From NCBI GenBank assembly GCA_002328075.1, contig DCVT01000022.1, forward strand, positions 9,172 to 73,171: 64,000 bases of DNA, read 5' to 3'. The position numbers were made by a program, and so were the translations under genes. Below are positions 27,235 through 63,982 of the stretch, piece by piece; the stretch's first letter is position 1, and every line of letters begins with the position of its first letter. Origin of the DNA: Anaerolineales bacterium UBA2181. Lineage in GTDB: Bacteria > Chloroflexota > Anaerolineae > Promineifilales > UBA4811. The notes under the pieces are model-generated. The model saw only the letters and a program-made list of their open reading frames with translations. It did no database searches and was not told where the DNA came from.

Positions 27235-27461
27235 CCTGGCAATCCGCGCGGTGCCGCGCCGGGCGGCACCTATGTGAGCGACGCGGACGGCTGACCGCCA
27301 ATGCCTGGTGCGCCAGATTTGGGTGTTTCCCGACACGAGCAGGCCACCCCCACCCCACCCCGGCCGCCAGCCTCTTCCCGGTTGCGCAGCGCCTGGTACA
27401 ATGCTTGTTCCGGCCGGCGCAACGCGACCGGTCGCGGTATGGCAAGATGCATACGTGTGAG

Positions 27462-28703
27462 ATGTCAAGGAATCGGTTAATGGCCGGTCTGCTGATTGCG
27501 GGCCTGCTGCTGGCGGGCTGCGGCGCGCTCTCCTGGCGGCAGGACCCGGCGGTGCGAGCGGCCGACCAGGCGTGCCGGGAGCCGGGCCAGACCGATCGGT
27601 ATGCTTGCATCGAACTGAACGCCTTGCAGTCGCTCAACCCGGAGATCTGCCGGCTGGCGGGCATCGCAGTCCACGACATGTGCCTCCAGGCGGTCTATCA
27701 GGCGGCTGATGACCCGGCCGTCTGCGAGCAGCTCTACCTGCAGGGGGTGCGCCCGACCTGCCGCGCCTACTACCAATCGCGGGCCCGCCTCGGCGAGCCA
27801 GATGCGGCCGGGCCGGTCTGGCATAGCATTCTGTTCCTGCGCACCCACGCCAGGGCGACCGAACTCTGGACGGTGAACCTGCTCAGCGAGGCAGCCGAAC
27901 GGCGAGTCCGGCCGGAGCACGTGGTGCAGGACCCGGCCGTCTCGCCGACGGGCGACGCCATCGCCTACGTCCGGGTGACCGGCGACCATGGCGGCGTGGT
28001 CTCTGAGTTGTGGTTGGTAGACCCGGAGGGTACAAACCCGCGCCTGCTCTACACGCCGCCGGCCGGCCAGAGCGTGCTCTCCCGACCGACCTGGTTGCCG
28101 GAGGGCCGGCAGGTGGCGTTTTTGCAGCACGGCAGTGGTACGCGCAGCCAGCTGCTGGGCATCGCCCTCGGCGGTGGCCAACCGACCACGATCCTGACGG
28201 ATTGCCTGGATTACGCGCTGTCCCCGGACGGCGCACTGCTGGTCGGCGTGGACCTGGAGCGGCGGCTCGCGATGTACGATCTGTCTGGCGAGTGGATCGG
28301 CGACCTGGCGCCGCAGAACATCCGATTGACCGACCTTGGCGAGTTGGCTTTTTCCCCAAGCGCTGGCCAGTTGGCGTTTCGGGCCACCGAGCCGGGCATC
28401 GATACCTGGAACTTGTACGTGATGGACTGGTCGGCGCTGTCCGCACGCCGCCTGACCGACCTGAGCGGCTTCCACCCGGCTACTGCCCAGACCGGCCAGG
28501 TCAACGGGCTGAGCTGGACGGAGAACGGCGGGCACCTGGTCTATTCGGTGGACGGTGTCGCGGAGCATGCCGGCATCTGGTTGATCAGCCTGGACGGTCT
28601 GGTGCGCCGGCGGCTGTACGCCGGGGAGGAAGGTGAGTGGGCAGCGGTGCAGGGACCTTGGTACCAGGCGGCCGGCCGGCCCGTGGGGGCGACCGATGGG
28701 TAG
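27462..28703 (+). CDS. Lipoprotein with TolB/PD40-like beta-propeller repeats
   Basis: Start placed at ATG 27462. MSRNRLMAGLLIAGLLLAGC lipobox. A Cys-rich N-terminal module, then repeated ...SP(D/T)G..(I/L)A(Y/F)... blades (AVSPTGDAIAYV, RPTWLPEGRQVAFL, ALSPDGALLVGV, AFSPSAGQLAFR, LSWTENGGHLVYS). Confidence 0.7.
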   Translation: MSRNRLMAGLLIAGLLLAGCGALSWRQDPAVRAADQACREPGQTDRYACIELNALQSLNPEICRLAGIAVHDMCLQAVYQAADDPAVCEQLYLQGVRPTCRAYYQSRARLGEPDAAGPVWHSILFLRTHARATELWTVNLLSEAAERRVRPEHVVQDPAVSPTGDAIAYVRVTGDHGGVVSELWLVDPEGTNPRLLYTPPAGQSVLSRPTWLPEGRQVAFLQHGSGTRSQLLGIALGGGQPTTILTDCLDYALSPDGALLVGVDLERRLAMYDLSGEWIGDLAPQNIRLTDLGELAFSPSAGQLAFRATEPGIDTWNLYVMDWSALSARRLTDLSGFHPATAQTGQVNGLSWTENGGHLVYSVDGVAEHAGIWLISLDGLVRRRLYAGEEGEWAAVQGPWYQAAGRPVGATDG

Positions 28704-48052: not shown

Positions 48053-48085
48053 GCGCGATTGTTCCCACGGATTGGAGGTGGTGAG

Positions 48086-49828
48086 ATGCAGATACTCAGT
48101 GAACGGCAAGAAGCATTGCTCAAGGAGGAGCGCCAATTCCTGGGCGATCTGCGGGTTGCCCTGGCGGCCTTTGGCGCCGCCCCGGAGGACCAGCAGACGT
48201 TGGCCGATTCCATCGAACAACTAGACGATTTTTTCCTGTTGGTGGTGGTGGGTGAGTTCAATGCAGGCAAGAGCGCGTTCATCAACGCGTTGTTGGGCGA
48301 CGCCGTGTTAGAAGAGGGCGAAGTGCCCACTACCGCCCAGGTCCAAATTCTGCGCCATGGTCACGAGCGCCAACGCACAGTGATCAGCGACCAATTGCAC
48401 GTTCTGACCGCCCCAGTGCCCATGCTGCGCGAACTGAGCATTGTGGATACGCCGGGCACCAACTCGATCATCCAACGCCATCAGGAAATTACGTCGAGGT
48501 TTGTGCCCCGTTCCGATTTGGTGCTCTTTGTCACCTCGGCCGACCGCCCTTTTACCGAGAGCGAGCGCATCTTTTTGGAGCGCATCCGGGACTGGGGGAA
48601 AAAGGTCACCGTGGTCATCAACAAGATAGATATCCTGCGAAGCGAGGCAGCGCTGGAGAGCGTTCGCCGTTTTGTGGAGCAAGGGGTCAGGGATACGCTG
48701 GGTCTCGAACTCCAGATTCTGCCGGTCAGCGCCCTGTTGGCGCAGCAGGCCAAGCACGGCCACCCGGAGCGCTGGCAGCAGAGCCGCTTTGAGCCGTTGG
48801 AGCGCTATATCCACGACACGTTGGACGAAAGCGGCCGGCTCCACCTCAAGCTGGAAAGCCCGTTGGGGGTTGGGCTCTTTTTGGTTGACAAATACCTGGC
48901 GGCGACCAACCAGCAGATGAGCCTCCTGCAGGAAGACCTAGGGATGCTGCAGGACGTGGAGAGCCAGTTGACGGTCTACCAAGAGGACATGGAGCGGGAC
49001 TTTGGCCTGCACATGAAGGGGATCGAAAACGTTCTGTACGAGATGGAAAGGCGCGGTCGAGATTATTTCGAGGAGACGTTCCGCCTCCGACGCGTACTGG
49101 ACTTGTTGGACAAGAAGCGGATCGAGCGTGAATTCCAGGAACAGGTGGTGGCGGACGTTCCCCAGCGCGTGGAGCAGCGGGTCAACGAGCTGGTGGACTG
49201 GGTGGTCGAATCGGACTTGCGTCAGTGGCAGGCAGTGACCGACTATCTGGCTGAGCGACGACGGCAGTTCAAAGCGCGCATCGTCGGCGAAGGCGGAACC
49301 GGGTTTCAATACGACCGGGCGCGCCTGTTTGAAGGACTTGGAAGGCAAGCTCAGGAACTGGTGGACGGGTACGATAGGGTGGCGGAAGCTCGCCAGATCG
49401 CTGCCGGCGCCCAATCGGCCGTGGCCGCAGTGGCAGCGCTGGAGGTGGGTGCGGTTGGGCTGGGTGCTCTTGTCGTGGCGCTGGCCACGACTGTGGCAGC
49501 CGACGTCACGGGAGTGCTCATGGCCAGCTTGGTCGCTTTTCTCGGCCTCTTTATCATCCCTAATCGGCGCCGCCAGGCAGAGCATGAGATGAGAGACAAG
49601 ATAACGGCAATGCGCAACCGGTTGGCCGGCGCCTTGCGCAGCCAGTTCGAGGCTGAGATGGGGCGGATCATGCAGCGAATCGGCAATACCATTGCGCCAT
49701 ATACCCGCTTTGTGCGGGCTGAGAGGGATAAGCAACAGGCCGTTCAGGTGGAGCTGGGTCGGATTCGCGCCGGAATGACGCGCCTGCGGGTTGAGGTGCA
49801 GGAAAAAAGCGCTCATGGCGGGAACTGA
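48086..49828 (+). CDS. Bacterial dynamin-like protein (large GTPase with membrane-insertion hairpin)
   Basis: Start refined to ATG 48086 (SD ggaggtggtgag). G1 GEFNAGKSAFINALLG, G3 VDTPG, G4 NKID. Long helical stalk. Hydrophobic paddle AVAAVAALEVGAVGLGALVVALATTVAADVTGVLMASLVAFLGLFII. Confidence 0.8.
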   Translation: MQILSERQEALLKEERQFLGDLRVALAAFGAAPEDQQTLADSIEQLDDFFLLVVVGEFNAGKSAFINALLGDAVLEEGEVPTTAQVQILRHGHERQRTVISDQLHVLTAPVPMLRELSIVDTPGTNSIIQRHQEITSRFVPRSDLVLFVTSADRPFTESERIFLERIRDWGKKVTVVINKIDILRSEAALESVRRFVEQGVRDTLGLELQILPVSALLAQQAKHGHPERWQQSRFEPLERYIHDTLDESGRLHLKLESPLGVGLFLVDKYLAATNQQMSLLQEDLGMLQDVESQLTVYQEDMERDFGLHMKGIENVLYEMERRGRDYFEETFRLRRVLDLLDKKRIEREFQEQVVADVPQRVEQRVNELVDWVVESDLRQWQAVTDYLAERRRQFKARIVGEGGTGFQYDRARLFEGLGRQAQELVDGYDRVAEARQIAAGAQSAVAAVAALEVGAVGLGALVVALATTVAADVTGVLMASLVAFLGLFIIPNRRRQAEHEMRDKITAMRNRLAGALRSQFEAEMGRIMQRIGNTIAPYTRFVRAERDKQQAVQVELGRIRAGMTRLRVEVQEKSAHGGN

Positions 49829-49986: not shown

Positions 49987-50751
49987 GTGAATCGAGATGA
50001 CCGCGATCGCTCCAAGGACGAGATTTCCCAGGCGTCGCAAAAGGCGCGCATCCTGGTGGTGGAGGATGAGACCGCGCTGCTTCAGACCATTGCCTACAAC
50101 CTGGAGCGCCAGGGTTACGAGGTCCACACCGCTACTGACGGGTTGGCAGCCCTGGATATCGCGCGTTCCCAGAAAAAGCTGGATCTCATCCTGTTGGACG
50201 TCATGCTGCCCCGGTTTGATGGATTTGAGGTCTGCCGGCTGGTGCGCCAGGACATGAACGTGCCCATCATCATGCTGACGGCGCGCGCCGATGAGGTGGA
50301 CAGGGTCGTTGGCCTGGAAGTGGGGGCGGATGACTATATCACCAAGCCCTTTAGCATGCGAGAGCTGATGGCCCGCGTCAAAGCGATGCTCCGCCGCGTG
50401 CGTTTGGTTCGCGAGGAGCGGCTGACTGGAGGAGATGGAGCGCCCGGACGGGCAGCTTTGGAATTCGGCGATCTGGTCATTGACCCGGTGCGGTGGGAGG
50501 TCACCCTCAAAAGGGAGGTGCTGTCATTGAAACCCAAGGAGTATGAACTCTTGCTCTTCCTGGCCCGCAACCGGGGTGCGGTGCTCTCGCGCGATCTGAT
50601 ACTGGAGAGGGTCTGGGGTTGGGATTATGGTGGCGGCTCGAGGACGGTGGACGTGCACGTGCGGTGGTTGCGCGAAAAGATCGAACGAGATCCCGCACAA
50701 CCCGATCGAATTGTCACTGTCCGGGGCGTGGGATACCGGTTTGAAGGGTAA
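49987..50751 (+). CDS. OmpR/PhoB-family response regulator (probable phosphate regulon regulator)
   Basis: GTG start with aaggagag SD. ILVVEDE...[15 protein letters not shown] receiver. Winged-helix C-terminus [31 protein letters not shown]...[15 protein letters not shown]...[11 protein letters not shown]. Adjacent to a PhoR-like kinase and near pstSCAB-phoU. Confidence 0.9.
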
Positions 50752-50754
50752 AAG

Positions 50755-52536
50755 TTGCTTCGCAGTATCCGCCAACGAATAGCGGTTCCCTATGCCGCTC
50801 TGATCCTGGTGTCTACCGTGGTACTGGCATTGTTCGTCTCCACCTATGTCAGGGCCGAGTATCTGACCGACCTGGAGTCGCATCTGGTGGCCGATGCCCG
50901 CATGGTCGGTCAGGCGGTGCTGCCCGCGCTTCGCGCGGACAGCGCCGGTGCTCAGGTTCTTCAGACTCTGGCGGGGCAGTTGGGAGATTCGCTGGGAGCG
51001 CGGGTTACATTGATCGGAGTGGATGGGTGGGTGCTGGGCGATTCATACGAGGACCCGCTTGGCATGGATAACCACCTGACGCGGCCGGAGGTGCAAGCCG
51101 CGCTGGCCGACGGTGTTGGAGTATCGACTCGTCGCAGCCCCACCTTGGGTTACGACCTCATGTACGCGGCGGTACCGGTGATTCTTGAGGGCGAGACCGT
51201 GGCCATTTCTCGGGTCTCCTTGCCTCTCACCCGGGTGCAGGAGCGGGTGGATCGACTGCGGAACACAGTTCTTCTGACCGCCGCGGCGGTGCTGCTGCTG
51301 GCTGGCCCCCTGGTGGTGCTCACGGCTGAAGGGATCGCCCGGCCGGTGCGCACGCTGACCCAACTGGCCGAGCGCGCATCGCAGGGCGAGAGGTCCGGCC
51401 GCATTCGCACCGCTAGCCACGACGAGACCGGTCGGCTGGCAGACGCCTTCAACCGCATGATTGAAGAAACGGATCGACAGATGGATGCCTTGGCCAGCCA
51501 GAGGAACGCCCTGACCGCGGTGCTGACCCACATGGCGGACGGAGTCATCATCACCGGAGCGGACGAGCGGGTCAGGTTGATCAACCCAGCCGCTGCACGG
51601 CTGCTGGATACCGCTGAAGCCTCGGCGGTGGGCGAGCGGTTCGTCACGGTCGCGCGCGATCATCAGGTGGTCGAAATCTGGCGCCGGTGCCTGGCGAGCA
51701 ATACGGAGCAAACCGCCGCCGTCGAGATGGTCGGCGCGCGCCCTTTTCTGCAGGTGGTGGTCACCCCATTGGACGGCGATAGCTGTCTGGTGCTGCTTCA
51801 GGACCTGACCCGAATCCGCCGGTTGGAAACGGTGCGGCGAGACTTCATCAGCAACATCTCGCACGAGTTGCGTACTCCCCTGGCCTCATTGCGCGCGCTA
51901 GTAGAAACGTTGCAGGACGGAGCGTTGGCTGATCCCCCCGCCGCCACGCAATTCCTGGGCCTGATGCAGACCGAGGTGGATGCACTGGCGCAGTTGGTGG
52001 AAGAGCTGCTCGAACTCTCGCGCATCGAATCCGGCCGGGCGCCGCTGCGGCTATGCCCTACTCCGGTGGCGGACGTGATCCATCCGCCTGTCGCGCGTCT
52101 TCAACCGCAGGCCAAGCGGGCCCACCTGCGTCTATTCGTCGAATTGCCGGAGGGCCTGCCGGATGTGTTGGCCGACGTCGAACGCGTGCGCCAGGTGGTG
52201 ACCAACCTGGTTCACAACGCCATCAAGTTCACCCCCCTCAAGGGCACAATCCGGGTCTGGGCAGAGCCGGCTGGAGATATGGTGCGCATCGCGGTGCAGG
52301 ACAATGGGATTGGCATTGCCACCGATGACCTTGCCCGTGTCTTTGAGCGGTTTTACAAGGTGGATCACGCTCGCAGCGGCAAAGGAACCGGGCTGGGTCT
52401 GGCCATTGCCCGTCACCTGGCCCGGGCTCACGGAGGTGATATCCGAGTGGAAAGCGTGGAGGGAAGCGGCAGCACCTTTAGTTTCACCCTGCCGTTCGCG
52501 CACGATCGTCCAGTTGACTCGGTACAGCAAGGCTAG
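50755..52536 (+). CDS. Sensor histidine kinase (extracytoplasmic loop, HAMP, PAS, HisKA, HATPase), PhoR-like
   Basis: TTG start 3 nt after the regulator stop. Two TM segments flank a ~150-aa loop. H-box FISNISHELRTPLASL. N, G1 and G2 boxes (NLVHNAIKFT, DNGIGI, GTGLGLAI). Confidence 0.85.
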   Translation: MLRSIRQRIAVPYAALILVSTVVLALFVSTYVRAEYLTDLESHLVADARMVGQAVLPALRADSAGAQVLQTLAGQLGDSLGARVTLIGVDGWVLGDSYEDPLGMDNHLTRPEVQAALADGVGVSTRRSPTLGYDLMYAAVPVILEGETVAISRVSLPLTRVQERVDRLRNTVLLTAAAVLLLAGPLVVLTAEGIARPVRTLTQLAERASQGERSGRIRTASHDETGRLADAFNRMIEETDRQMDALASQRNALTAVLTHMADGVIITGADERVRLINPAAARLLDTAEASAVGERFVTVARDHQVVEIWRRCLASNTEQTAAVEMVGARPFLQVVVTPLDGDSCLVLLQDLTRIRRLETVRRDFISNISHELRTPLASLRALVETLQDGALADPPAATQFLGLMQTEVDALAQLVEELLELSRIESGRAPLRLCPTPVADVIHPPVARLQPQAKRAHLRLFVELPEGLPDVLADVERVRQVVTNLVHNAIKFTPLKGTIRVWAEPAGDMVRIAVQDNGIGIATDDLARVFERFYKVDHARSGKGTGLGLAIARHLARAHGGDIRVESVEGSGSTFSFTLPFAHDRPVDSVQQG

Positions 52537-55500
52537 TAGCCCAACTCACGCCCCAGCACCATCAGCGCCATGGCCAACGTTCGGCCGGCGCCGGCCAACT
52601 TGTCCTCTGAAATCGCCTCCACTGAGTCGGCCGGCTGTTGGGAGAACCCCTCCCACCCTTGCCAGCGGACGGACACCATGGGCGCCTCCTGACCAGACCG
52701 TGTAAAGGTGCGACCCTGGTCGTAGATCATGCTGATGTCGATGGCCTCGCGGGCCCTTGCCGTGCTCACGCCCATCTGCTGCGCGGACTTTTCCAGCAGT
52801 TCGGCCAGACGCAGACTGCTGCCGGCCGTGACCTCCAGCCCATCACCCGTACCCGCGCCCACACCCCGCACGTGGATCACCGCCTCCAGTTTGAAATTGG
52901 AGAACGCCGGCCGCGCCTGCAGGAACTTGGAAACGTCGGTGTAGGAGACCAGTTCGCCACCCTCGCGGCCCTGTCCGGCGTAGGCGATGAACATGATGCT
53001 GCGGTTGGCTTGATAGCCCGACTCTTGCAGCACGCGGATGGCCTCCAAAATCACCGCCACGCCGCTGGCGTTGTCATTGGCTGCCGACAGACTCTTGCCC
53101 GGAACGGGCGGTGGGCTGTCGTACGGCGCCATCACCACCACCAGGTAACGGGCGAGGCAGTCCACACAGTTGTCAAAACTGACTGACCCCGGTATGTAAC
53201 CGATGACGTTCTGTACTGGAAAGCGCTCCTCGATCTGCGCCTGGACTTCCACGTCGACGGTGGGCACCAGGTCCAACTGCCAGACCTCCTCGGCCGCCAG
53301 GCGCTCGCGCTGGTCCCGCACCTGGCTCAGCGTGTACCCGGATCCGTCCAGCAGTCGCTCGGCCGCAGAATTCGATAACCAGAGAGAGGGATAGTCCTGG
53401 CCAATAGGTTCACTGTTGAACCAGTGGAAGAAGGCGGCCGCGCTGGCCCCTGAGAGACTGGGCTGAATCTCAAACTGGTGCTCGTCTGGTGCAACCACCA
53501 GCAACCCCTGATCCACCCTCCTAGCCACCTCCAGCGCATCCTGGGCGTCCAAGGTCAGGATCACCTGGCCGTCGAAATCGACTTTGGCCAGATCCACAAA
53601 TCGGGTCTGGATGATGCCTGTGGCCTGTACCAGAGGAACTCCCAAGGCGATGAGTTTCACTGGCCCGCTGCCCACGCCCAACGATACCCAACTCCCCGAA
53701 TAGGCGGCAATGTCCTTGAGAAAGCTCACCGGCGGGCCGTCGTCATGGATCACCAGTTCCGGCTCTGCTACCAGGTACCCAAAGCTGCGTGTTCGGTCCT
53801 GGAACCAGGTACCCCGCTGGCCGCCGGATTGGAGGCCCAGGTCCTGGAACTCCTCGGCGATGTATTTAGCCGCCGCCGCCACCCCAACGGTTCCCAAGGC
53901 TCGGCCCTCCATTTCCGGAGCGGTAAGCGCCAAGACGTGCTGCATGGCGCGGTCGGCTTCGAACTGCTGGGCGTATGCCCTGTAGTAGGGAGTGGAGCCG
54001 CTGTTGTCCATGAGCCAGCTCAGAACCAGAGCCGCCACCACGGTCGCCGCCACGGTGTACCAACTGACCAGCCGGTTGATGACCAGGTTACCCTCTTCCA
54101 CCAGGCGTCGTAAGCCTTCTCCAAAGAGGTTAAAGCTGAGGATCGAGACGAAAAAGGCCAACATGGGGTATAGCGCCGTCCATGGGTAACTGCGGGCCTG
54201 ATAGCGGATGTTGGCCAGCAGGGCGCCCCACTCAGGAACGTCCGAATAGAGCGCAACCCCCGCAGGCAGGTGGAATAGGGTGCCCCCGCCGATAAAGATG
54301 CTGATGAAACCCAGTTCTCCCAAGGTCATCAGCACAGCGCCCATCTCCAACGCGATGATGGAGATGAGGGCAGAAAAGAGGTTGGGAAGGATGTGCCGGC
54401 CCAAGATGCGGGCAGTGCGGGCCCCAGTTGCCACTGCACTCTCGATGTATGGCTGCGGCCGCAATTTGATCACCTCACCCCGCACGAATTGCATGATTTC
54501 GCCCCATCCCACGAAACAGAGGGCCAGGACAAAGGGCACCATCCCCTGCCGGATATCCAAAGCCAGGATCAGAATCATCGCCAGCAGCAAGGTCGGGAAG
54601 GCAGAAATGATCTCGGCCGCGCCCAGAATCCAGCGGTCCAGCTGGCCGCCGTGAGTCCATCCTGCCAGCGCTCCCAGCACCACGCCAACTACGGTTCGGG
54701 TGGCTACGGCCAGGGCTGCCAGGATCAGCGTCTGCTGGGCGCCAGCCAGCAACAGGCTCATCATGCACCGGCCCAGCATATCCGTGCCCCATGGGTAGGC
54801 TTCGCCCGGCTCGAACGGCGGCAGTGCGAGTTTGCCGTCGATAAAGACCAAACCCTCCGTTCGGTAAGGGTTGTTGGGCGTAATGGAGGGGCCCACAAAA
54901 ACCAAGAGGGCCAATCCCAGTACCACCAGGCCGCCCACCATGAAAGGCAGATTGGTCAGCGCCGACTTCCAGGCCGAACGCGTGCGGGTCTCCCAAACAG
55001 TTTGATTTGGCCGGGGAAAGGACCGGTCTGCTAGCTCTTCTGGGCGCAACTCGGCCGCCTGTCTGGCTTGCCGTTTTCGACGCCAGCGAACTAGCAGGTT
55101 ATCATCCGCCCAGTCCCTCAATTCGTCCCTGGCGTCACGCAGGGTCGCCACCAACCCCCGGCGCTCCCGCAGGGCGACGTGGGCCGGTCCCTCTGAAAGG
55201 CGCGGATCCAGGATGCGGTAGCAGAGTTCCAGTATGAGGTTCACCAGGATGAATAACGAACCCAGGCAAAGCACGAGCGCGACGGTCAGATTATGGTCGT
55301 GCCGGGCGATGCTCTTGAGCAGCGTGAAACCCGCTCCCGGCCATCCGAAATAGAGCTCGACGACGGGCAGACTGCTCAGGGAGAATCGCAGCGAGACGCC
55401 GATGGTTGTGAGAATCGGGATGGCTGCGTTGCGCAGGACGTGTACCGCCAACACCCGATGACGCCTCAGTCCCTTGCTGCGTGCGGTCCGCACATAGTCC

Positions 55501-56444
55501 TGGTCCAGGACCTGCCGCACGGCGATGAAGGTCATACGGGTTATCTGCGCGACCGGCCGCGCCGATAACACCAATGCTGGCAGCAGCAGGTGGTTGTCCC
55601 AACCAAAGCCGCCGACTGGCAGCAGGGCGCGCCCCGCGTGGCGTGTCAGCGTGATGACAGCCCACTGGAGCAGATAAGCAGCGAAGAAGCTGGGGACGGA
55701 CATGCCAATGATCGTGGCGATGAGGACATAGAGCGACCGCTGAGCTTTGGAACGGGCCGCAAGCACTCCCAGGCTCACCCCCACCAGCGCAGCCAGCAGG
55801 AGTGAGACCCCCAGCAGTCCCAAGCTGCGTGGCAGCCGTTCCCGGATCACCCCCAACACCGGCACTGCGAGCAGGGTCTCTCCGCCAGCGGTCGAAAGCC
55901 CCAAGTCTCCCTGCACCAGGTTTGTTAGGTACGCACCGGTCCGAGAAAGGGCCTGACTGGCGGCTGGTCCAAAGGGTGTGCCCCCGGCCATATCCAGGCC
56001 GAGGTAGGTCAGCAGGATGATGGTCAGCAATATGAGCGCACCGAAAGCCAGTCGTCGGCCCGCCAGCAGCACCAAACCCCAGCCGGGTCGGCCACGTCGG
56101 TCGCGCCCGCGCGCGGCGGTTTCAACGCTGGCAAAACCTGCCCAGTCCGGCCGAATCGGTTCTGCGACCGGTGGGGCTAGAGGGACGGATACCAGGGGGC
56201 GTGGCGCCAGCCGTTTTCCCAGCGCTTGCACCCCACGCCGCGCTGTCTGGTTCTGCGGCTCAATGCGCTGCACCTGCTCAAGGCAGAATAGCTTGTCGGC
56301 ATCCGCCTCAACCACGCGGGCCAACCAGAGCCACGTCGGGACATCAGTCGGGTGCTCCCGGAGGTGTTGGGCCAATAGCGCTATCGCGTCTGCCCGCCGC
56401 CCGGCCTGCGCTTGCCGGATGCCTTGCTGCAAAAGATCAACCAT
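52533..56444 (-). CDS. 1303-aa fusion: N-terminal TPR-like segment + DppB/OppB-type ABC permease + DppC/OppC-type ABC permease + C-terminal extracytoplasmic M28-peptidase-like domain
   Basis: Single ORF. TPR-like DAIALLAQHLREHPTDVPTWLWLARVV. Permease 1 with YVRTARSKGLRRHRVLAVHVLRNAAIPILTTIG (EAA-loop region). Permease 2 with YPWGTDMLGRCMMS and YIESAVATGARTARILGRHILPNLF. Then a TM, followed by NVIGYIPGS, VVVMAPYDS, AANDNASGVAVILEAIRVL and MFIAYAGQGREGGE, which are collinear with M28 motifs. Confidence 0.75.
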   Translation of the reverse strand: MVDLLQQGIRQAQAGRRADAIALLAQHLREHPTDVPTWLWLARVVEADADKLFCLEQVQRIEPQNQTARRGVQALGKRLAPRPLVSVPLAPPVAEPIRPDWAGFASVETAARGRDRRGRPGWGLVLLAGRRLAFGALILLTIILLTYLGLDMAGGTPFGPAASQALSRTGAYLTNLVQGDLGLSTAGGETLLAVPVLGVIRERLPRSLGLLGVSLLLAALVGVSLGVLAARSKAQRSLYVLIATIIGMSVPSFFAAYLLQWAVITLTRHAGRALLPVGGFGWDNHLLLPALVLSARPVAQITRMTFIAVRQVLDQDYVRTARSKGLRRHRVLAVHVLRNAAIPILTTIGVSLRFSLSSLPVVELYFGWPGAGFTLLKSIARHDHNLTVALVLCLGSLFILVNLILELCYRILDPRLSEGPAHVALRERRGLVATLRDARDELRDWADDNLLVRWRRKRQARQAAELRPEELADRSFPRPNQTVWETRTRSAWKSALTNLPFMVGGLVVLGLALLVFVGPSITPNNPYRTEGLVFIDGKLALPPFEPGEAYPWGTDMLGRCMMSLLLAGAQQTLILAALAVATRTVVGVVLGALAGWTHGGQLDRWILGAAEIISAFPTLLLAMILILALDIRQGMVPFVLALCFVGWGEIMQFVRGEVIKLRPQPYIESAVATGARTARILGRHILPNLFSALISIIALEMGAVLMTLGELGFISIFIGGGTLFHLPAGVALYSDVPEWGALLANIRYQARSYPWTALYPMLAFFVSILSFNLFGEGLRRLVEEGNLVINRLVSWYTVAATVVAALVLSWLMDNSGSTPYYRAYAQQFEADRAMQHVLALTAPEMEGRALGTVGVAAAAKYIAEEFQDLGLQSGGQRGTWFQDRTRSFGYLVAEPELVIHDDGPPVSFLKDIAAYSGSWVSLGVGSGPVKLIALGVPLVQATGIIQTRFVDLAKVDFDGQVILTLDAQDALEVARRVDQGLLVVAPDEHQFEIQPSLSGASAAAFFHWFNSEPIGQDYPSLWLSNSAAERLLDGSGYTLSQVRDQRERLAAEEVWQLDLVPTVDVEVQAQIEERFPVQNVIGYIPGSVSFDNCVDCLARYLVVVMAPYDSPPPVPGKSLSAANDNASGVAVILEAIRVLQESGYQANRSIMFIAYAGQGREGGELVSYTDVSKFLQARPAFSNFKLEAVIHVRGVGAGTGDGLEVTAGSSLRLAELLEKSAQQMGVSTARAREAIDISMIYDQGRTFTRSGQEAPMVSVRWQGWEGFSQQPADSVEAISEDKLAGAGRTLAMALMVLGRELGY

Positions 56445-56844: not shown

Positions 56845-57495
56845 TTATCGGTTGCCGGCTCTGAATATCACGTCTTCCCTTCCCGCCAGCATATCCAGCA
56901 TCCGGTCGGTGACAATGTCCAGATGAGGGGGTCTGTGGACAAAGTCCAGGTCGTCGGTGCGGATGGTCAACACAGGGCAGAGATCAAAGGATTGCATCCA
57001 CTCCTCGTAGAAACTCGCCAGCAAACCCAGATAATCGGAAGTGATTCCGGTTTCCATGCCCCGTCCACGGCTTTGAATGCGCTCCAAGAGCACGGAGACC
57101 GGCGCATCCAGGTAGATGAGCAAATCCGGCCGGGGGAGCTCCCGGATAATGAGCTCAAAGACGCGCCGGTAAGCCAGGTAATCACGCTCACTCAGGTTGT
57201 CCAGGTGGTGCAGTGCGCGGGCAAAGATGCATGCGTCCTCGTAGATGCTGCGGTCCGCGATGGCGGACTGCGCGTCCTGTGCCAAGTCCAAGTGCTGCTC
57301 AGCGCGGTGACCCAGGAAGAACACCTGCAGGTGGAACGACCATTTTCGCATATCGGCGTAGAAATCGGCCAGGTAGGGGTTGTCTGAGACCGACTCAAAC
57401 GCGGTGCGCCAACCCAGCCGCGCTCCCAAACGCTCGGTCAACGATGTCTTGCCAACGCCAATGTTGCCTGCCACCAGGACGAACCGCTTGGTCAC
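56845..57495 (-). CDS. Deoxynucleoside kinase (dAK/dGK/dCK family)
   Basis: P-loop VAGNIGVGKTSL, NPYLADFY, FHLQVFFL and DRSIYED motifs typical of bacterial deoxynucleoside kinases. 216 aa. Confidence 0.85.
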   Translation of the reverse strand: MTKRFVLVAGNIGVGKTSLTERLGARLGWRTAFESVSDNPYLADFYADMRKWSFHLQVFFLGHRAEQHLDLAQDAQSAIADRSIYEDACIFARALHHLDNLSERDYLAYRRVFELIIRELPRPDLLIYLDAPVSVLLERIQSRGRGMETGITSDYLGLLASFYEEWMQSFDLCPVLTIRTDDLDFVHRPPHLDIVTDRMLDMLAGREDVIFRAGNR

Positions 57496-57958: not shown

Positions 57959-58861
57959 ATGCATCGTATTGGCTTGATTCTGGCCATATCTCTGGCCGTA
58001 CTGATCCAGGTGTCCTGTGGTGCGGCGGATGCCACATCGGCGCCAGCCCAGGTGCCCGCACAGGCTCCAGCGACTCTGGCGCCGGCAGGGTTGGCCGGGC
58101 TGACTGGTCAGATCCAAATCGCAGGTTCGACCACGGTTCAGCCGCTGGCGGAGCAGTTGGCAGAGGCCTTTATGGCGCTCAATCCGGACGTGATGGTTGA
58201 GGTCCAGGGCGGTGGATCCAGCCAGGGGGTGACCATGGCGGGCGAGGGGACGGTGGACATTGGAAATGCGTCACGCGACGTGAAACAGAGCGAGTTCGCC
58301 AAGTTCACCAGTTTGACGGTGCACACCATTGCCTACGATGGGATAGCCATTGTGACGCACCCTGGTGTGACGTTGCCTACGCTCACGGTGGAGCAGGTGC
58401 GGGACATCTTTGCCGGCGAGATCATGAACTACTCTGAGGTAGGCGGACCGAACGCGGATATTGTGGTGGTATCGCGTGAAGAAGGCTCCGGGACGCGGGC
58501 GGCGTTCGAGGAGTTGGTGATGGCGTACAAGGACGCGGCGGGAGAGAGCAAGACCAAGCTGATCTACGAGCGGGCGCTTTTGCAGCAGTCGAACGGGCAG
58601 GTGCGGACGGCAGTATCGACGACGTCCAATGCAATAGCATACTTGTCGTTTGGGTTTCTGGATAGCTCGGTGCGCGCGGTGCCCATCAATGGGTTCGAGC
58701 CGACGGCGGGCAACGTCAAAGCGGCCACTTATCCGATTGTGCGACCACTGAACATGCTGACCAACGGTGCCCCCAATGCTCTGTCGCAGGCTTTCCTGGA
58801 CTTTATCCTGAGCGACGCGGGCCAGGCCATTGTGGGTGAGGAATATATCACGGTGCATTAG
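57959..58861 (+). CDS. pstS: Phosphate ABC transporter substrate-binding protein PstS
   Basis: SD agaggagag. Signal peptide. GSTTVQPLAEQLAEAF and GGGSSQG motifs typical of the PstS family. First gene of pstSCAB. Confidence 0.9.
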   Translation: MHRIGLILAISLAVLIQVSCGAADATSAPAQVPAQAPATLAPAGLAGLTGQIQIAGSTTVQPLAEQLAEAFMALNPDVMVEVQGGGSSQGVTMAGEGTVDIGNASRDVKQSEFAKFTSLTVHTIAYDGIAIVTHPGVTLPTLTVEQVRDIFAGEIMNYSEVGGPNADIVVVSREEGSGTRAAFEELVMAYKDAAGESKTKLIYERALLQQSNGQVRTAVSTTSNAIAYLSFGFLDSSVRAVPINGFEPTAGNVKAATYPIVRPLNMLTNGAPNALSQAFLDFILSDAGQAIVGEEYITVH

Positions 58862-58973
58862 GCAAGGATGCTTGTCTCTCGAGGGAGCATCGGACGGTGG
58901 CCGTTAGCTTGGCCCGGTCAGGTGTTCCCTTTTTGCCGTCTCTGGTACGTGTGCCAATGAGGAGTGAGGGCAG

Positions 58974-60341
58974 TTGAACATCAGAGCAGCAGTTGTGGGC
59001 TCGAGGCAACGCCCAGTGCTGGCAACAGGGCTTGCTGTGCTGCTCGCTGTGGGCGCCCTGGCGTGGCTGGTTCGCGGGTTAGTGTTGGCGGTTTCAGCGG
59101 CCGAGGGGAAACTGGGCGCGCTGCAGGGCCTTTTGATCACAGTTGTGGTGACTGGCGCTGCTTTGACCCTGGCCTGGGGAATGTGGCAATTACAGAACTG
59201 GGCACGGTCCGGGGTTCTGTTCCTACTGATCGGCGTCGGCCTCTACTATGGCCTGAGCCAGGTCTTTGCCGGCGCAAGCGAGATCTTTGCCGGGGAGCAA
59301 GTCAAAAGCCTTGGTGAGATACTGCTGGTTGCCGTGCGCTCGCTGGGCCGGCTGGCGGCAACCGGCGCCGTGCCGGCCGCAATCATCTTTGGGCTGTTGC
59401 GGCTGGACTCGGATTTTGAGGAGACGCGCCGGCAGCGCGTGCTGGTGGATCGCACGGTGCGCTACATCCTTTTTTCCTCGGCATTGAGCGCCATCCTGAT
59501 CGTGTTCCTGATCCTGCTGTTCACCATGCGGGAGGCCTGGGATTCCATTCGACACGTAGGGCTGGACACCATGTTGCTGGGCACAATCTGGCGCCCCGGC
59601 TCAATCATCGGCAATTCCGAAGCCCAGCTGGGCCTGGTTCCCATGATTATTGGTTCTATCCTCAGCACCATAGGGGCGGCGGCCTTGGGAGTTCCCATCT
59701 CAATCGGCACGGCCATTCTGCTGGCCGAGGTAGCGCCCGACAAAGTGCGGGAGGTAGTTCGGCCCGCCATCGAGCTCTTGGCCGGCATTCCGTCGGTGGT
59801 CTACGGCCTGTTTGGGATGGTGGTCCTGGCCCCTTTCATCAGCAAGACGTTCCTGATTAGGTACAATACCGGGTACGGCCTGCTAAATGCCGCCATCATC
59901 CTGGCCGTAATGATTGTGCCCACCATCACCAACATCACCGAAGATGCAATTCGGGCAGTGCCCAAGCGTTACAAAGAGGGCTCGCTGGCGTTGGGCGCTA
60001 CCCATTGGCAGACTATTGTGAATGTCATCTTGCCCGCGGCCCGATCCGGAATTGTGGCTGCCATCATCTTGGGCATCGGTCGGGCTCTGGGCGAAACCAT
60101 GGCGTTGATCATGGTCATCGGTAACTCGATTGCCATACCCACTCCGCTCAACAACAACCCATTGACCCTGTTCCTCAGCGCAGCGCGCACCCTCACTGGA
60201 AACATCGCCGTCGAGATTGCCTACGCGGCTGGTCTACATCGGAGCGCACTCTTTTTCACCGGTGTGCTGCTGTTCGTGATGATTCTTCTCACCAATGTGC
60301 TGGCGCGCCACTTTATGCGTGAGCGGCAGCCTTTGCGTTAG
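58974..60341 (+). CDS. pstC: Phosphate ABC transporter permease PstC with ~150-aa N-terminal multi-TM extension
   Basis: TTG start with gaggag SD. The C-terminal ~300 aa are canonical PstC (EAA-type loop YKEGSLALGATHWQTIVNVILPAARSGIVAAIILGIGRALGETMA). The first ~150 aa add about four hydrophobic helices. Confidence 0.85.
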   Translation: MNIRAAVVGSRQRPVLATGLAVLLAVGALAWLVRGLVLAVSAAEGKLGALQGLLITVVVTGAALTLAWGMWQLQNWARSGVLFLLIGVGLYYGLSQVFAGASEIFAGEQVKSLGEILLVAVRSLGRLAATGAVPAAIIFGLLRLDSDFEETRRQRVLVDRTVRYILFSSALSAILIVFLILLFTMREAWDSIRHVGLDTMLLGTIWRPGSIIGNSEAQLGLVPMIIGSILSTIGAAALGVPISIGTAILLAEVAPDKVREVVRPAIELLAGIPSVVYGLFGMVVLAPFISKTFLIRYNTGYGLLNAAIILAVMIVPTITNITEDAIRAVPKRYKEGSLALGATHWQTIVNVILPAARSGIVAAIILGIGRALGETMALIMVIGNSIAIPTPLNNNPLTLFLSAARTLTGNIAVEIAYAAGLHRSALFFTGVLLFVMILLTNVLARHFMRERQPLR

Positions 60342-60359
60342 GAGAGGTGGAGCAAAGCC

Positions 60360-61292
60360 ATGGCTTCGATCGCTCAGGTAGTGCAGTCCCGTTGGAGCGC
60401 ACGCGCTGCAGGCGGCAACCATCTGCAGCGCAAACTTGCCCAAAAAGCCGCATTCGGGTTGTTGTGGTTGTCAGCTGCGATCGTGGTGGTTCTGTTGCTC
60501 TGGATCACTGGCTACGTTCTGTGGAACGGAGCCCGCGCGATCAACTTGGAGTTCCTTACTACTCGGCCGGCCGGCGGGGTTTCGGGCGAGGGTGGAATGT
60601 CGACGACCATCGTTACGACGCTCTACCTGGTGGTGTTGACCATCTGCCTGGCGACGCCGTTGGGCGTGTTTGGGGCCGTATTTTTGGCAGAGTACGCCGG
60701 AGAGGCGCAACAAATCAACCCGCTGGTTCGGCGCCTGATCGCCGTCTCGCGCACCGGGGTGGAGATCCTGGCCGGGGTGCCGTCCATTATTTTCGGCCTC
60801 TTTGGCTTTGCGGTCTTTGTTTCGCTGATGAAACTCAAACTCTCGCTGCTTTCGGCCGGCCTAAGCGGTGCCTGCCTGGTTCTGCCAGTGATCATCCGTA
60901 CGACTGAAGAGGCGTTGATGGCGGTGCCCGGTTCCTACCGCGAGGCCAGTCTGGGGTTAGGCGCCACCAAGTGGCAGACTATATCGGGCGTGGTGATTCC
61001 GGCCGCCATGCCGGGCATCATCACCGGCGTGATCCTCAGCGTTGGCAGAATTGTTGCCGAGACTGCGATCTTCTGGGTGACGCTGGGCGGAAGCTATCGC
61101 CTGCCCAAGAATCTGCTGTCGGCCGGCCGGACCATGGCGCTTCACGTCTACAGCCTGGCTACCGAGACCCGTGCTTTTGACAAAGCTATGGGCACGGCCG
61201 CCATTCTAATCCTGACCATCATGCTGCTTAACCTGGCCATCAACATTGTTTCGCGGCGTTTGGCTGCGAGGTCCATGGGCAAACTGGGGTAA
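60360..61292 (+). CDS. pstA: Phosphate ABC transporter permease PstA
   Basis: [47 protein letters not shown] loop. 6 TM. Its position between pstC and pstB fits. Confidence 0.9.
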
Positions 61293-62065
61293 TGGCAATG
61301 GAAGCCACAAAACTGGAAGTCAACCACTGCGATTTTTACTATGGCGGGTTTCGCGCGCTGAAAGACGTGCAAGTTCAGATCCCTGCCAATCGGATCACCT
61401 CGATTATCGGCCCATCTGGTTGCGGCAAGAGCACCTTTCTTCGTCTCTTTAACCGCATGAACGATCTGATTCCCGGCGCCAGGGCCGAGGGCGAGATCCG
61501 CATGGACGGACAGCAGTTGTATGACCTGGATATTGTCGAACTGCGCAAGCGGGTGGGCATGGTGTTTCAACGGCCAAACCCGTTCCCGAAATCGATCATG
61601 GACAACGTGGCTTACGGACCCCGCGCGCACGGTGTGCGTGACCGGGTCCGGCTGGAAGAGATCGTCGAGCGTAGCCTGCGCGACGCAGCGCTGTGGGATG
61701 AGGTAAAGGACAACCTCGACAAATCCGGACTGGCGCTCTCTGGCGGGCAGCAACAGCGGTTGTGCATTGCCCGGGCTCTGGCGGTTGAACCCGAGGTGAT
61801 TCTCATGGACGAGCCGGCATCGGCGTTGGATCCGGTGGCTACCCTGCGCATCGAAGAATTGATTCAGACCCTCAAGAAACACTATACAATCGTCATTGTG
61901 ACGCACAACATGCAGCAGGCGGCCCGCGCCTCCGACTATACTGCCTTTTTTATGATGGGCGAGGATCGGGAAGGATATCTGGTAGAGTATGGCCCAACCC
62001 GCGAGGTCTTTACCAATCCCAAGGACCGGCGCACCGAAGACTATATAACGGGCAAGTTCGGCTAA
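61292..62065 (+). CDS. pstB: Phosphate ABC transporter ATP-binding protein PstB
   Basis: It overlaps the pstA stop by 1 nt. [53 protein letters not shown] and [13 protein letters not shown] make a textbook PstB. Confidence 0.95.
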
Positions 62066-62078
62066 ATCGGAGGCGTAC

Positions 62079-62567
62079 ATGGCAAGGCGACGGGTTCTCT
62101 TCTTGTGCACGGGCAATTCGTGTCGCAGCCAGATGGCTGAAGGGTTGGTGAATGCGCACCTTCCGGGGCAATGGCAGGCTTTTTCGGCCGGCACACGACC
62201 GGCCGGCCAGGTCCATGAGCTGGCAACACGGGTAATGGCCGAACTGGGTGTTGATATTGGGCCGCAGATTCCCAAATCGTTGGATGCGCTCCGCGGCGTC
62301 GACCTGGACCTGGTGATCACACTGTGCGACAGCGCGGCACAAGAGTGTCCCTTGTGGCCGGGAGGCGGTCAGCGAGTGCACATGGCCTTTCCCGACCCGG
62401 CGGAAGCGACTGGCTCCGAAGAGCAACGTATCGCAAAGTTCCGCAGTGTTCGGGATGCCATTCACCTACAGGTGCTTGAGCTTCTCGGCCAATACGTCGC
62501 TCATCCACCCGGTCCCGGAACAGACGGGAACGACAGACGGACAGGAGCATTTGTACGCAGGGCGTAG
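62079..62567 (+). CDS. arsC: Arsenate reductase, thioredoxin-coupled LMW-PTPase type (ArsC)
   Basis: VLFLCTGNSCRSQMAEG P-loop (C-x5-R) plus the downstream Cys pair in ITLCDSAAQECP, seven residues apart as in pI258/B. subtilis-type ArsC. It starts 13 nt after pstB. Confidence 0.8.
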   Translation: MARRRVLFLCTGNSCRSQMAEGLVNAHLPGQWQAFSAGTRPAGQVHELATRVMAELGVDIGPQIPKSLDALRGVDLDLVITLCDSAAQECPLWPGGGQRVHMAFPDPAEATGSEEQRIAKFRSVRDAIHLQVLELLGQYVAHPPGPGTDGNDRRTGAFVRRA

Positions 62568-62786
62568 ATTGTTCACGCCGGCATGATGCGAAGGCCGGTG
62601 CGCTGTGACCTGGGTCTGGAGCAAGGCTGGATTGACACCGGGGCGAACCGTTTTGCCTGGCCAGCAGGGTGGAAAGGGCGCTTACCAACACGATCAGCGC
62701 GGTGGTCAGGGTCGGCCCGGCGACAGCCCGGACGGGAATCGACGAGCAACTCGCCCGGAAACGCCAAGGCAAAAACAAATGACGGG

Positions 62787-63122
62787 ATGCGCTCTGTGAT
62801 GTCCACTCAGCACCCTGTCGCCGGCGACCGACGCGTGCTGGCAGCCTGCGTCAAGTTCACGAACGAGCTGGGGGATGTGGGCGGGGATCTGCGAGATGTA
62901 TACCCATTGGTGTTGATCATGGGATCGGTGTCGTTGCCGACCCAGATCAGCGCCATCCCGCGTATGGCCGAGCAGATCCAAGGTATGTTACGCCAGGAAT
63001 TGGCGGCCCTGGTCGACCGCGACCTGGAAACGGTCCGGGTGACTGCTCGCCAAGGCGACTGGGATCCCCTTCAAGCGGGCGCACCATGCGCTTCCGGTGC
63101 TCAGTCTGGAAGCTCAAGTTGA
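62787..63122 (+). pseudogene. Truncated PhoU paralog (internal fragment only)
   Basis: VMSTQHPVAGDRRVLAACVKFTNELGDVGGDLRDVYPLVLIMGSVSLPTQISAIPRMAEQIQGMLRQELAALVDRDLETVRVTARQGD aligns without gaps to residues ~66-150 of the intact PhoU downstream (LIATQQPVAGDMRVLAAVLEIATELERLGDYAKGI...LLDLPVMAQKGVDMLRRALDAFAHRDVEQARQIPHEDD). The N-terminal ~65 aa and the second PhoU repeat are missing. Confidence 0.55.
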
Positions 63123-63304
63123 CACCCTTGCTTTCGTCCGCTGCGGGCGGGCATTACTTAAAGCACACGGGTGTTCGGGTCACCCAGATCTGTGAACCGA
63201 TTGTCAACATGGTTCCGGGTCAGATTCACGGGCTTGTCGGTGTTTGTCCTTTGGCCTCCATGCCGGTATAATCCAGGTGGCTGGAGGTTGTGCGAGGTGA
63301 TGCT

Positions 63305-63982
63305 ATGATCAGAGAAGCGTATGCCAAAGAGCTGCAGCGGATCCAGGATGAGGTCATGTTATTGGGGAGCATGGTGGGGGATGCGATCCTCAAGTCGGTT
63401 GAGGTGTTAAAACGGCGCGACCACGAAGGGGCCAAGTGCCTACGGAAGGCAGATCGGGAGATCAACCAACGACGATATGCCATCGAGTCGGACGTCCTCA
63501 CGCTGATCGCCACCCAGCAACCTGTGGCCGGGGATATGCGTGTCCTGGCAGCGGTGCTAGAGATCGCCACCGAGCTGGAGCGGCTGGGCGATTACGCCAA
63601 GGGGATCGCCAAGATCAGCCTCAAAATCGGCGATGAGCCGCTCATCAAACCGCTGTTGGACCTGCCGGTTATGGCCCAGAAAGGGGTGGACATGTTGCGC
63701 CGGGCACTGGATGCGTTTGCCCACCGGGACGTGGAGCAGGCTCGCCAAATCCCGCACGAGGATGACGCGGTCGACGACCTGTACGACCAGGTCTACCGAG
63801 AGTTGATTGCGATCATCATGGGCAATCCGCGAACCATTGACCAGGCCAACTATTTGATGTGGGCGGCGCATAATCTGGAGCGGACCGCGGACCGGGTGAC
63901 CAACATCTGCGAGCGGGTGATCTTTATGGTCACGGGCGAAATGGTGGAGATCGGACGCAAAGGGGTTCGCGAATACAACTGA
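63305..63982 (+). CDS. phoU: Phosphate signalling complex protein PhoU
   Basis: Start refined to ATG 63305. Two PhoU repeats with ATELERLGDYAKGIA and AHNLERTADRVTNICERV (E/D-x-x-x-D metal motifs). 225 aa. Confidence 0.9.
   Translation: MIREAYAKELQRIQDEVMLLGSMVGDAILKSVEVLKRRDHEGAKCLRKADREINQRRYAIESDVLTLIATQQPVAGDMRVLAAVLEIATELERLGDYAKGIAKISLKIGDEPLIKPLLDLPVMAQKGVDMLRRALDAFAHRDVEQARQIPHEDDAVDDLYDQVYRELIAIIMGNPRTIDQANYLMWAAHNLERTADRVTNICERVIFMVTGEMVEIGRKGVREYN

Follow-up and report, generated by a model that had tools for sequence, protein, structure and literature searches.

To our knowledge, every characterised type I ATP-binding cassette (ABC) importer receives its substrate from a receptor of the periplasmic-binding-protein fold. 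A degenerate extracytoplasmic peptidase domain is familiar from another kind of ABC-type machine, FtsEX-EnvC, an ABC-like complex that controls a catalytically dead LytM/M23 domain outside the membrane. In the type I importers OpuA and GlnPQ the extracytoplasmic binding domains are tethered covalently to the membrane domain by an added transmembrane (TM) segment (PMC7673798, PMC8025302), while nicastrin and nicalin are M28-fold pseudo-peptidases that act on membrane machines as receptor, gatekeeper or scaffold (PMC4326451, PMC2647162). Here we analyse a 64-kb stretch of the genome of Anaerolineales bacterium UBA2181 (contig DCVT01000022.1; hereafter the window), in which one gene encodes DppB-like and DppC-like permease halves fused to an M28-fold ectodomain. 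Our analysis indicates that the permease halves have intact ATPase-coupling loops and that the ectodomain has lost its metal site and, judged from its residues, is catalytically dead. Tentatively, we favour a role for the protein in peptide import, with the former peptidase domain serving in binding or docking.

A fused DppB-DppC permease with an external M28-fold domain

The fusion gene (52533..56444, on the minus strand, as are all parts of it given below) is a complete open reading frame (ORF) that runs from ATG to TAG in a single frame, with 1303 codons followed by the stop. An earlier reading of this DNA, made from the sequence alone (hereafter the original prediction), had described one uninterrupted ORF, and this stood up to a check for chimerism: an identical 1303-residue protein is encoded on 11 contigs in Logan, JGI and ENA, from at least three assemblies. 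The agreement of 11 contigs of independent assemblies, together with more than 120 homologues that have their domains in the same order, rules out a chimeric assembly or a frameshift artefact.

From N to C terminus the protein consists of a weakly TPR-like head, a DppB-like permease domain, a charged linker, a DppC-like permease domain, a 13th TM helix and a 488-residue external M28 domain with a PA-like insert. Pfam recognises BPD_transp_1 twice (E 5e-50), OppC_N (PF12911) at residues 488-529, with 24.8 bits against a cut-off of 23.9, and Peptidase_M28 at residues 1101-1292 (52569..53144; E 2e-11, profile positions 14-191 of 193), and NCBIfam models of the Opp/Nik B type and C type match residues 167-416 and 489-780, respectively. 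All NCBIfam scores are far under the equivalog cut-offs, the best being that of Opp2B with 186 bits against 350, and therefore no named transporter (NikB/C, Opp1-4 B/C, DppB/C or GsiC/D) can be assigned. Hydropathy, interpreted in the light of the N-in/C-in six-helix topology known for DppB and DppC, indicates 6+6+1 TM helices, and a 13th helix following two sets of six places residues 816-1303 outside the cell. Pfam, NCBIfam and hydropathy thus bear out the arrangement given in the original prediction, including an ectodomain that faces outward, although at about 488 residues this domain is larger than the ~420 proposed there.

The DppB/OppB-like domain (residues 125-417; 55194..56072) has six TM helices, a BPD_transp_1 match at residues 222-417 and NCBIfam matches of the Opp2B/NikB type; the DppC/OppC-like domain (residues 491-790; 54075..54974) likewise has six, with OppC_N, the second BPD_transp_1 and NCBIfam matches of the Opp4C/NikC type. 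The EAA loop of the B half reads DYVRTARSKGL...HVLRNAAIP and that of the C half YIESAVATGA...RHILPN. In alignments both match the canonical DppB and DppC of related genomes nearly residue by residue, both are highly conserved across 120 homologues, and by this measure the ATPase-coupling loops are intact in both halves. The permease halves are also the best conserved region of the protein (64-67% identity across the family), and in the near-full-length model they match chains of E. coli DppBCDF and OppBCDF and of M. tuberculosis DppABCD and OppABCD with a TM-score (TMt) of 0.74-0.79 at 27-30% identity. With two BPD_transp_1 domains, OppC_N and the EAA loops, the protein has the defining features of a type I permease of the peptide/opine/nickel family (TC 3.A.1.5). 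The fold of both permease halves, the Pfam domains and the EAA loops are all shared with the DppBCDF/OppBCDF systems (8z1v and 8z21 from E. coli; DppABCD 8wd9 and OppABCD 8j5q from M. tuberculosis), from which the fusion differs in having B and C in one chain, in its extra TM helix and 488-residue M28-like ectodomain, and in having no adjoining gene here for an ATPase or a substrate-binding protein (SBP).

The two halves are joined by a charged, poorly conserved cytoplasmic linker (residues 418-490; 54975..55193), placed by hydropathy and charge, the alignment and the model. The loop to which it belongs (residues 405-498) contains 20 Lys or Arg and 15 Asp or Glu residues; the linker itself has a mean identity of 24% and a predicted local distance difference test score (pLDDT) below 50. 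After the C half, a short basic loop, RRLVEEGNLVINR, precedes the 13th TM helix (residues ~792-812; 54000..54074), which has its hydropathy peak at residues 792-810, is helical in the model and would run from the cytoplasm to the outside. At the other end of the protein, the cytoplasmic head (residues 1-120; 56085..56444) weakly resembles TPR proteins at residues 11-44, where the Pfam matches are below gathering (TPR_14, 19.1 bits against 23.5, E 0.002; TPR_19, 16.6 against 25, E 0.01). The head is present in only 21 of the 120 homologues, with a mean identity of 32%, and some homologues that have the same head have PF13432 or PF07719 TPR matches recorded.

The M28 metal site of the ectodomain

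The ectodomain (residues 816-1303; 52536..53999) was modelled by AlphaFold2 with a pLDDT of 86.8 and a predicted TM-score (pTM) of 0.86. The best Foldseek matches of this model in the PDB are P. aeruginosa PaAP, the Aneurinibacillus aminopeptidase 2ek8, B. subtilis BSAP, human transferrin receptor 1 (TfR1) and GCPII (E down to 7.6e-23), and a profile search of PDB sequences with the family finds the Vibrio aminopeptidase (1amp), YwaD and, weakly, nicalin (E 0.0017). On the basis of the model we are confident in assigning the ectodomain an M28 fold, probably combined with a PA-like domain. Pfam PA (PF02225) gives no match in this protein at E up to 1; in the model, the N-terminal helices are separated from the catalytic-like core by a beta-rich block (residues ~890-1050, boundaries approximate; 53295..53777; mean identity 32%), and all of the best Foldseek matches bear PA. 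The M28 core, with its putative PA-like insert, is shared with the aminopeptidases PaAP (8ack), 2ek8 and BSAP/YwaD (6hc6), at Foldseek E ~1e-22.

Ligand columns were read, in the numbering of the Vibrio aminopeptidase (AAP), from an alignment of 120 full-length homologues, and their assignment was checked against three canonical M28 relatives found in the same search (P0164, P0223 and P0257) and against phmmer and hmmsearch alignments to 1amp. The bridging Asp117 is retained as D1124 (53073..53075), in a column with Asp in 107 homologues and Asn in 11. Zinc ligand His97, which is His in the canonical relatives, is replaced by P1107 (53124..53126); the family has Gln in 110 cases, Pro in nine and Arg in one. 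The general base Glu151 and zinc ligand Glu152, EE in the canonical relatives, are here Q1158-G1159 (52968..52973). Gly is invariant at the second of these positions (120 of 120), and the general-base Glu is kept in 119 homologues, the sole Gln being that of the present protein. R1193 (52866..52868) takes the place of zinc ligand Asp179, as Arg does in 114 of the 120 homologues, where the canonical relatives have the Asp of QLDMVG. In the region of zinc ligand His256, where canonical relatives have SDH, we find Q1243-G1244 (52713..52718), in a loop that is modelled with low confidence and is variable in the family, with Glu or Asp. Compared motif by motif, the canonical relatives and this protein read GHYDH and APYDS, GANDNASG and AANDNASG, AWDAEE and AYAGQG, QLDMVG and HVRGVG, and SDH and YDQG, and no column of the ectodomain alignment has a conserved His. 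By-eye comparison in the original prediction had taken the ligands as substituted in APYDS, GQGREGGE and YDQG and the Asp of AANDNASG as kept, and profile alignment to the canonical relatives agrees on all four motifs.

Across the family, the aligned sequences indicate, four of the five zinc ligands are lost and only the bridging Asp is kept; the protein encoded in the window has gone one step beyond its family, with loss of the general-base Glu as well. An ectodomain so altered is predicted to be unable to bind two catalytic zinc ions and to be catalytically dead. It has the GAxDNASG motif with the bridging Asp in common with the PA-domain M28 enzymes and with AAP, but it differs from these aminopeptidases in lacking four of five zinc ligands and the catalytic Glu, and in sitting on a 13-TM permease instead of being secreted. 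Since the M28 fold is present while the catalytic features have failed, the protein is to be classed as an M28 non-peptidase homologue rather than as an aminopeptidase. The replacement residues (Gln, Gly and Arg) are themselves conserved across the family, and the catalytic-like core is 51% identical compared with 24% for the cytoplasmic linker, which looks like selection for a new role and not like decay.

Membrane-tethered ectodomains of the M28(+PA) type that lack metal ligands are likewise found in TfR1, in nicastrin of gamma-secretase and in nicalin of the BOS complex of the endoplasmic reticulum translocon. These are eukaryotic single-pass proteins with non-covalent partners, whereas here the domain is covalently fused to a bacterial ABC permease, and no direct descent is implied. 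None of the three works as an enzyme; they act as receptor, gatekeeper or scaffold, and in function they offer the nearest analogy to the present domain, along with the importers that have fused binding domains.

Family members and their genomic context

The original prediction called the fusion an orphan, a term that turns out to fit only the partner genes in the window. A word-indexed search returned at least 120 full-length homologues (1138-1496 residues, 48-60% identity), all with PF00528 and PF04389, and when the ectodomain served as query in an exhaustive profile search, 251 representatives of clusters at 50% identity matched at E≤1e-30. Scanning one genome per species, we found relatives in at least 275 genomes, the best 80 of which are almost all from Anaerolineales, Caldilineaceae, Ardenticatenales and Promineifilaceae. 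These numbers rule out a unique protein and define a large family, nearly all of it from the Chloroflexota class Anaerolineae, whose named members come from Anaerolineae or Chloroflexota metagenome-assembled genomes and carry the generic annotation ‘ABC transporter permease subunit’. A literature search that combined M28 with ABC permeases, with Chloroflexi or with Anaerolineae turned up no description of this fusion, and as far as the searchable literature shows no ABC importer joined to a dead M28 domain has been described.

Relatives were sorted with local hidden Markov models for three modules (permB, permC and ecto). In the permB-permC-ecto fusions examined the ligand pattern is always degenerate; about 50 of some 60 have the pattern Q/P/K-D/N-E-G-R, and two others, in loci L027 and L064, have Gln at the base position. 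Split forms also occur, with a dppB-like gene of ~300 codons followed by a dppC-ecto gene of ~800, and in some of these H-D-E-E-D is complete (P0257 in L007/L008, and L069). In P0142 a second, canonical M28 domain lies behind the degenerate one. The simplest reading of these sequences is that an active membrane-tethered exopeptidase joined DppC, and that B and C would then have fused and catalysis been lost. In one clade a degenerate nucleotide-binding domain (NBD) of the LolD/MacB type is fused ahead of permB-permC-M28 (P0163, L009:3-7032; also P0166 and P0234). This NBD has LTEEQ in place of the LSGGQ signature and Asp in place of the Walker B Glu, and P0166 is without Walker A. The P0163-type gene follows genes for an FtsX/MacB_PCD permease and an HlyD adaptor (membrane-fusion protein), an adjacency limited to a few loci, L004 and L011 among them.

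Two further arrangements were seen among the relatives. Some genomes have two permease-M28 fusion genes in tandem (L006:10001-18234, which is the same as L017; L018:1-5705; L027:6878-14147), and one of the L027 copies has the same P-D-Q-G-R pattern as the window protein. Split forms may also be followed by a giant protein of 1.7-2.3 thousand residues (L076:6997-15619, L081:3515-13231, L087:2373-13204 and L077:65-3697) that combines a DUF418 membrane anchor, PA, a canonical M28 domain, Peptidase_MA_2 and a second M28 domain; the neighbouring dppC-M28 protein is degenerate.

When 923 flanking ORFs from 86 loci were clustered all against all, no universal neighbour emerged, and no neighbour family occurs in more than 11 loci. 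The recurrent neighbours include genes for peptide import. L033 and L040 have dppD, dppF, SBP_bac_5, dppB, dppC, the gene for a protein that we call X, and the fusion in this order, all on one strand with gaps of 13-22 nt before the fusion. The Opp-type ATPase pair thus shares an operon with the fusion in these two loci, and it lies near the gene in L024, L026, L028, L048 and L068. Partial dppDF-SBP5-dppBC clusters are found near the fusion in L024, L026, L027, L028, L039, L048 and L066, and SBP_bac_5 genes adjoin it in about 11 related loci. Some relatives of the fusion therefore resemble DppBCDF/OppBCDF in sharing an operon with dppD, dppF and a family-5 SBP. The halves of the fusion are only 26-30% identical to the adjoining canonical DppB and DppC, which rules out a recent duplication of the adjoining dppBC and indicates an old, separate lineage.

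Protein X is a membrane protein of ~600 residues without a Pfam match that adjoins the fusion in 11 loci and has an N-terminal TM segment, a beta-rich external part and C-terminal TM helices. Its genes lie at L033:6047-7849, L040:6002-7807, L042:50-1852, L039:5209-6897 and L045:2318-4084 and, on the minus strand, at L048:5986-7767, L024:5566-7326, L027:4715-6586 and L028:5722-7446. A trio encoding MoxR (AAA_3), DUF58 and a TgpA-like transglutaminase lies no more than a few kb from the permease-M28 gene in nine loci, including the distant split-gene form (L032:3505-7175, L027:14260-17931, L042:7268-10995, L048:1262-4998, L039:11527-16070 and L007:6430-8850). The dpp cluster, protein X and the MoxR-DUF58-TgpA trio are all absent from the 64-kb window.

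Within the window the fusion gene is flanked as the original prediction described, by a deoxynucleoside kinase gene upstream on the same strand (56845..57495) and by a convergent gene for a PhoR-like kinase on the plus strand (50755..52536), the stop codons of the PhoR-like gene and the fusion overlapping by 4 nt. Both the fusion and the deoxynucleoside kinase gene are enclosed by a phosphate-regulon cluster (49987-52536 and 57959-63982), with PhoB-like and PhoR-like genes on one side and pstS, pstC, pstA, pstB, a low-molecular-weight phosphatase and PhoU on the other. A functional link to this regulon (PhoBR, pstSCAB and PhoU) was considered and rejected, as the context differs in six other relatives' loci. 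The only ABC ATPases encoded in the window are PstB and a MalK-type protein (2769-3869), and the latter is an unlikely partner because it has a sugar-type OB_MalK tail and lies 50 kb away. A scan for promoters and terminators around the fusion gene gave no signal above shuffled background, and the sole match in an Rfam scan of the window was a tRNA elsewhere in it.

Several other genes of the window deserve mention. Just upstream of the PhoB-like regulator gene is one for a bacterial dynamin-like GTPase of 589 residues (48059-49828, plus strand). A second very large fused membrane protein, of 1373 residues (6690-10811, minus strand), combines a YfhO-like region with a Polysacc_synt/MatE-type flippase domain behind it. 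The stand-alone MalK-type gene, with no permease nearby, adjoins a gene for a GntR regulator fused to a PBP_like domain (619-1746). On the plus strand, 18907-20850 encodes a 647-residue protein with three DUF5671 repeats, and 27192-28703 is an ORF of 503 codons without a Pfam match.

Possible roles of the fused protein

The interpretation that we favour, while regarding it as tentative, is that the protein is an importer module of the peptide family powered by DppD/F-type ATPases encoded elsewhere, in which the dead peptidase domain retains a function at the periplasmic entrance, either in binding or in docking. The fused DppB-like and DppC-like halves would form the complete membrane module of a type I importer, and the 13th TM helix would tether the dead M28/PA aminopeptidase-like domain to its outer face. 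The energy source is an assumption, because no Opp-type ATPase or family-5 SBP gene lies within the window, nor adjoins the gene in most relatives; DppD/DppF-type ATPases from elsewhere in the genome would supply it. The ancestral design may have been an active exopeptidase coupled to a peptide permease, and the domain, now non-catalytic, might be a receptor that captures peptides or a platform for docking or gating at the permease mouth, either standing in for a free family-5 binding protein or working alongside one.

This interpretation draws on the operon link to dppDF-SBP5-dppBC, which ties the fusion family to peptide import, and on the evolutionary series from split forms with H-D-E-E-D to B-C-M28 fusions that are all degenerate. 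It also draws on the attachment of the ectodomain by a C-terminal extra TM helix, which mirrors the fused binding domains of OpuA and GlnPQ; it should be noted that those domains have the periplasmic-binding-protein fold, whereas here an M28 fold with putative binding is attached in the same way. The series further reconciles two readings that the original prediction had offered as alternatives, as they appear to be two states of one family: an aminopeptidase coupled to a permease fits the split-gene relatives that keep H-D-E-E-D, and a tethered pseudo-peptidase fits every fully fused B-C-M28 protein examined.

A number of observations weigh against our favoured interpretation. In agreement with the original prediction, which had reported no cognate ATPase or binding-protein gene nearby, the 64-kb window contains no Opp-type ATPase and no family-5 binding protein (SBP_bac_5; no match by tblastn), and six other genomic contexts of relatives have no fixed ATPase or SBP neighbours. 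Where canonical dpp clusters do adjoin the fusion, they have their own SBP and their own permeases, which makes it less likely that the ectodomain takes the place of an SBP. The family's Glu1158 is lost in the present protein, so that the chemistry of the pocket may differ here even if it is conserved elsewhere. The position of the ectodomain on the permease is not predicted with confidence by AlphaFold (near-full-length model of 1184 residues; pLDDT 78, pTM 0.59). Finally, protein X, the MoxR-DUF58-TgpA trio and, in one clade, the degenerate LolD-like NBD with its FtsX permease and membrane-fusion protein point to other extracytoplasmic roles.

In a stronger version, which we consider rather unlikely, import would be independent of an SBP: peptides would be caught by the tethered pseudo-peptidase, whose conserved Asp/Glu/Arg pocket might grip them at their termini, and would pass from it into the fused DppBC channel. 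Such a protein would be a bacterial counterpart of TfR1 and nicastrin that evolved from an active peptidase-permease couple, which persists in the split-gene relatives. The original prediction had likewise suggested that the domain replaces a free binding protein; this part of it is weakened, as an SBP and ATPases are at hand in about ten related genomes and the ectodomain is left unfixed on the permease in the AlphaFold model.

We attach a similarly low likelihood to the converse possibility, that the fusion is an ordinary SBP-dependent Dpp/Opp paralogue served by a free family-5 SBP and DppD/F encoded elsewhere, with the dead M28 domain as an accessory for stability, envelope anchoring or oligomerisation. 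Such a paralogue would account for the SBP_bac_5 gene and two ATPase genes that share the operon of the fusion in L033 and L040 and lie close to it in some eight further loci, for periplasmic and EAA loops that look canonical, and for an ectodomain that AlphaFold does not dock. However, the adjoining clusters already have a DppB and DppC of their own, to which the fusion is only distantly related, and the former active-site residues (D1109, D1124/N1125, E1158, G1159 and R1193) are conserved more strongly than a passive appendage would need. It is also hard to see how a 488-residue domain tethered beside the docking face for the SBP could be neutral.

Less probable still is that the protein does not transport at all, and that its permease-like module signals conformationally across the membrane to the dead-peptidase ectodomain, thereby controlling an extracytoplasmic enzyme or sensing peptides. 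FtsEX-EnvC shares the pairing of an ABC-type membrane complex with a degenerate extracytoplasmic metallopeptidase domain, but FtsX is of type VII (MacB-like) and EnvC is a separate M23 protein, whereas here a dead M28 domain is fused to a type I importer fold. The gene's lack of fixed ATPase or SBP neighbours would be in keeping with a signalling role, as would recurrent neighbours that are envelope proteins (protein X and the TgpA transglutaminase trio) and a subclade with a cytoplasmic TPR head, typical of protein-protein contacts; the distant clade in which the same permease-M28 body carries a degenerate LolD/MacB-type NBD and is encoded behind an FtsX permease and an HlyD adaptor points the same way, although this MacB-type link is confined to a few loci. 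Against such a role, no mechanotransmission is known for the type I importer fold, conservation is highest in the permease halves, and both the operon link to dppDF-SBP5-dppBC and the relatives whose peptidase domains have canonical ligands point to peptide handling.

It is very improbable that the ectodomain is still an enzyme that trims peptides before uptake by non-canonical chemistry, with a single metal or by metal-free hydrolysis or cyclisation through D1124 and nearby carboxylates. In favour of such an enzyme, the bridging Asp and the general-base Glu (119 of 120) are preserved in the family, which also has an acidic residue where AAP has His256, and glutaminyl cyclases, in which the M28 fold can work with one zinc, are among the matches. 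Against it, there is no conserved His, Arg occupies the Asp179 site and Gly the Glu152 site, and Q1158 and Q1243 leave this protein one carboxylate of the original six catalytic residues.

Returning to the importer that we favour, a dead peptidase domain that delivered substrate or gated the channel would, if confirmed, be a new solution to substrate capture, and it would show clearly that an enzyme can become a receptor on a membrane machine in bacteria as well. A natural series for this change exists within the family: in split genes the peptidase domain appears from its ligands to be active, in fused genes it is dead, and some forms have two tandem ectodomains. The design is a widespread, conserved and unstudied one, a new arrangement of known kinds of parts whose function we infer from sequence. 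Anaerolineae abound in sludge, sediments and soils as degraders of protein and necromass. A conserved module for peptide handling that is specific to this class, hidden until now under the label ‘ABC transporter permease subunit’, would bear on how these bacteria feed.

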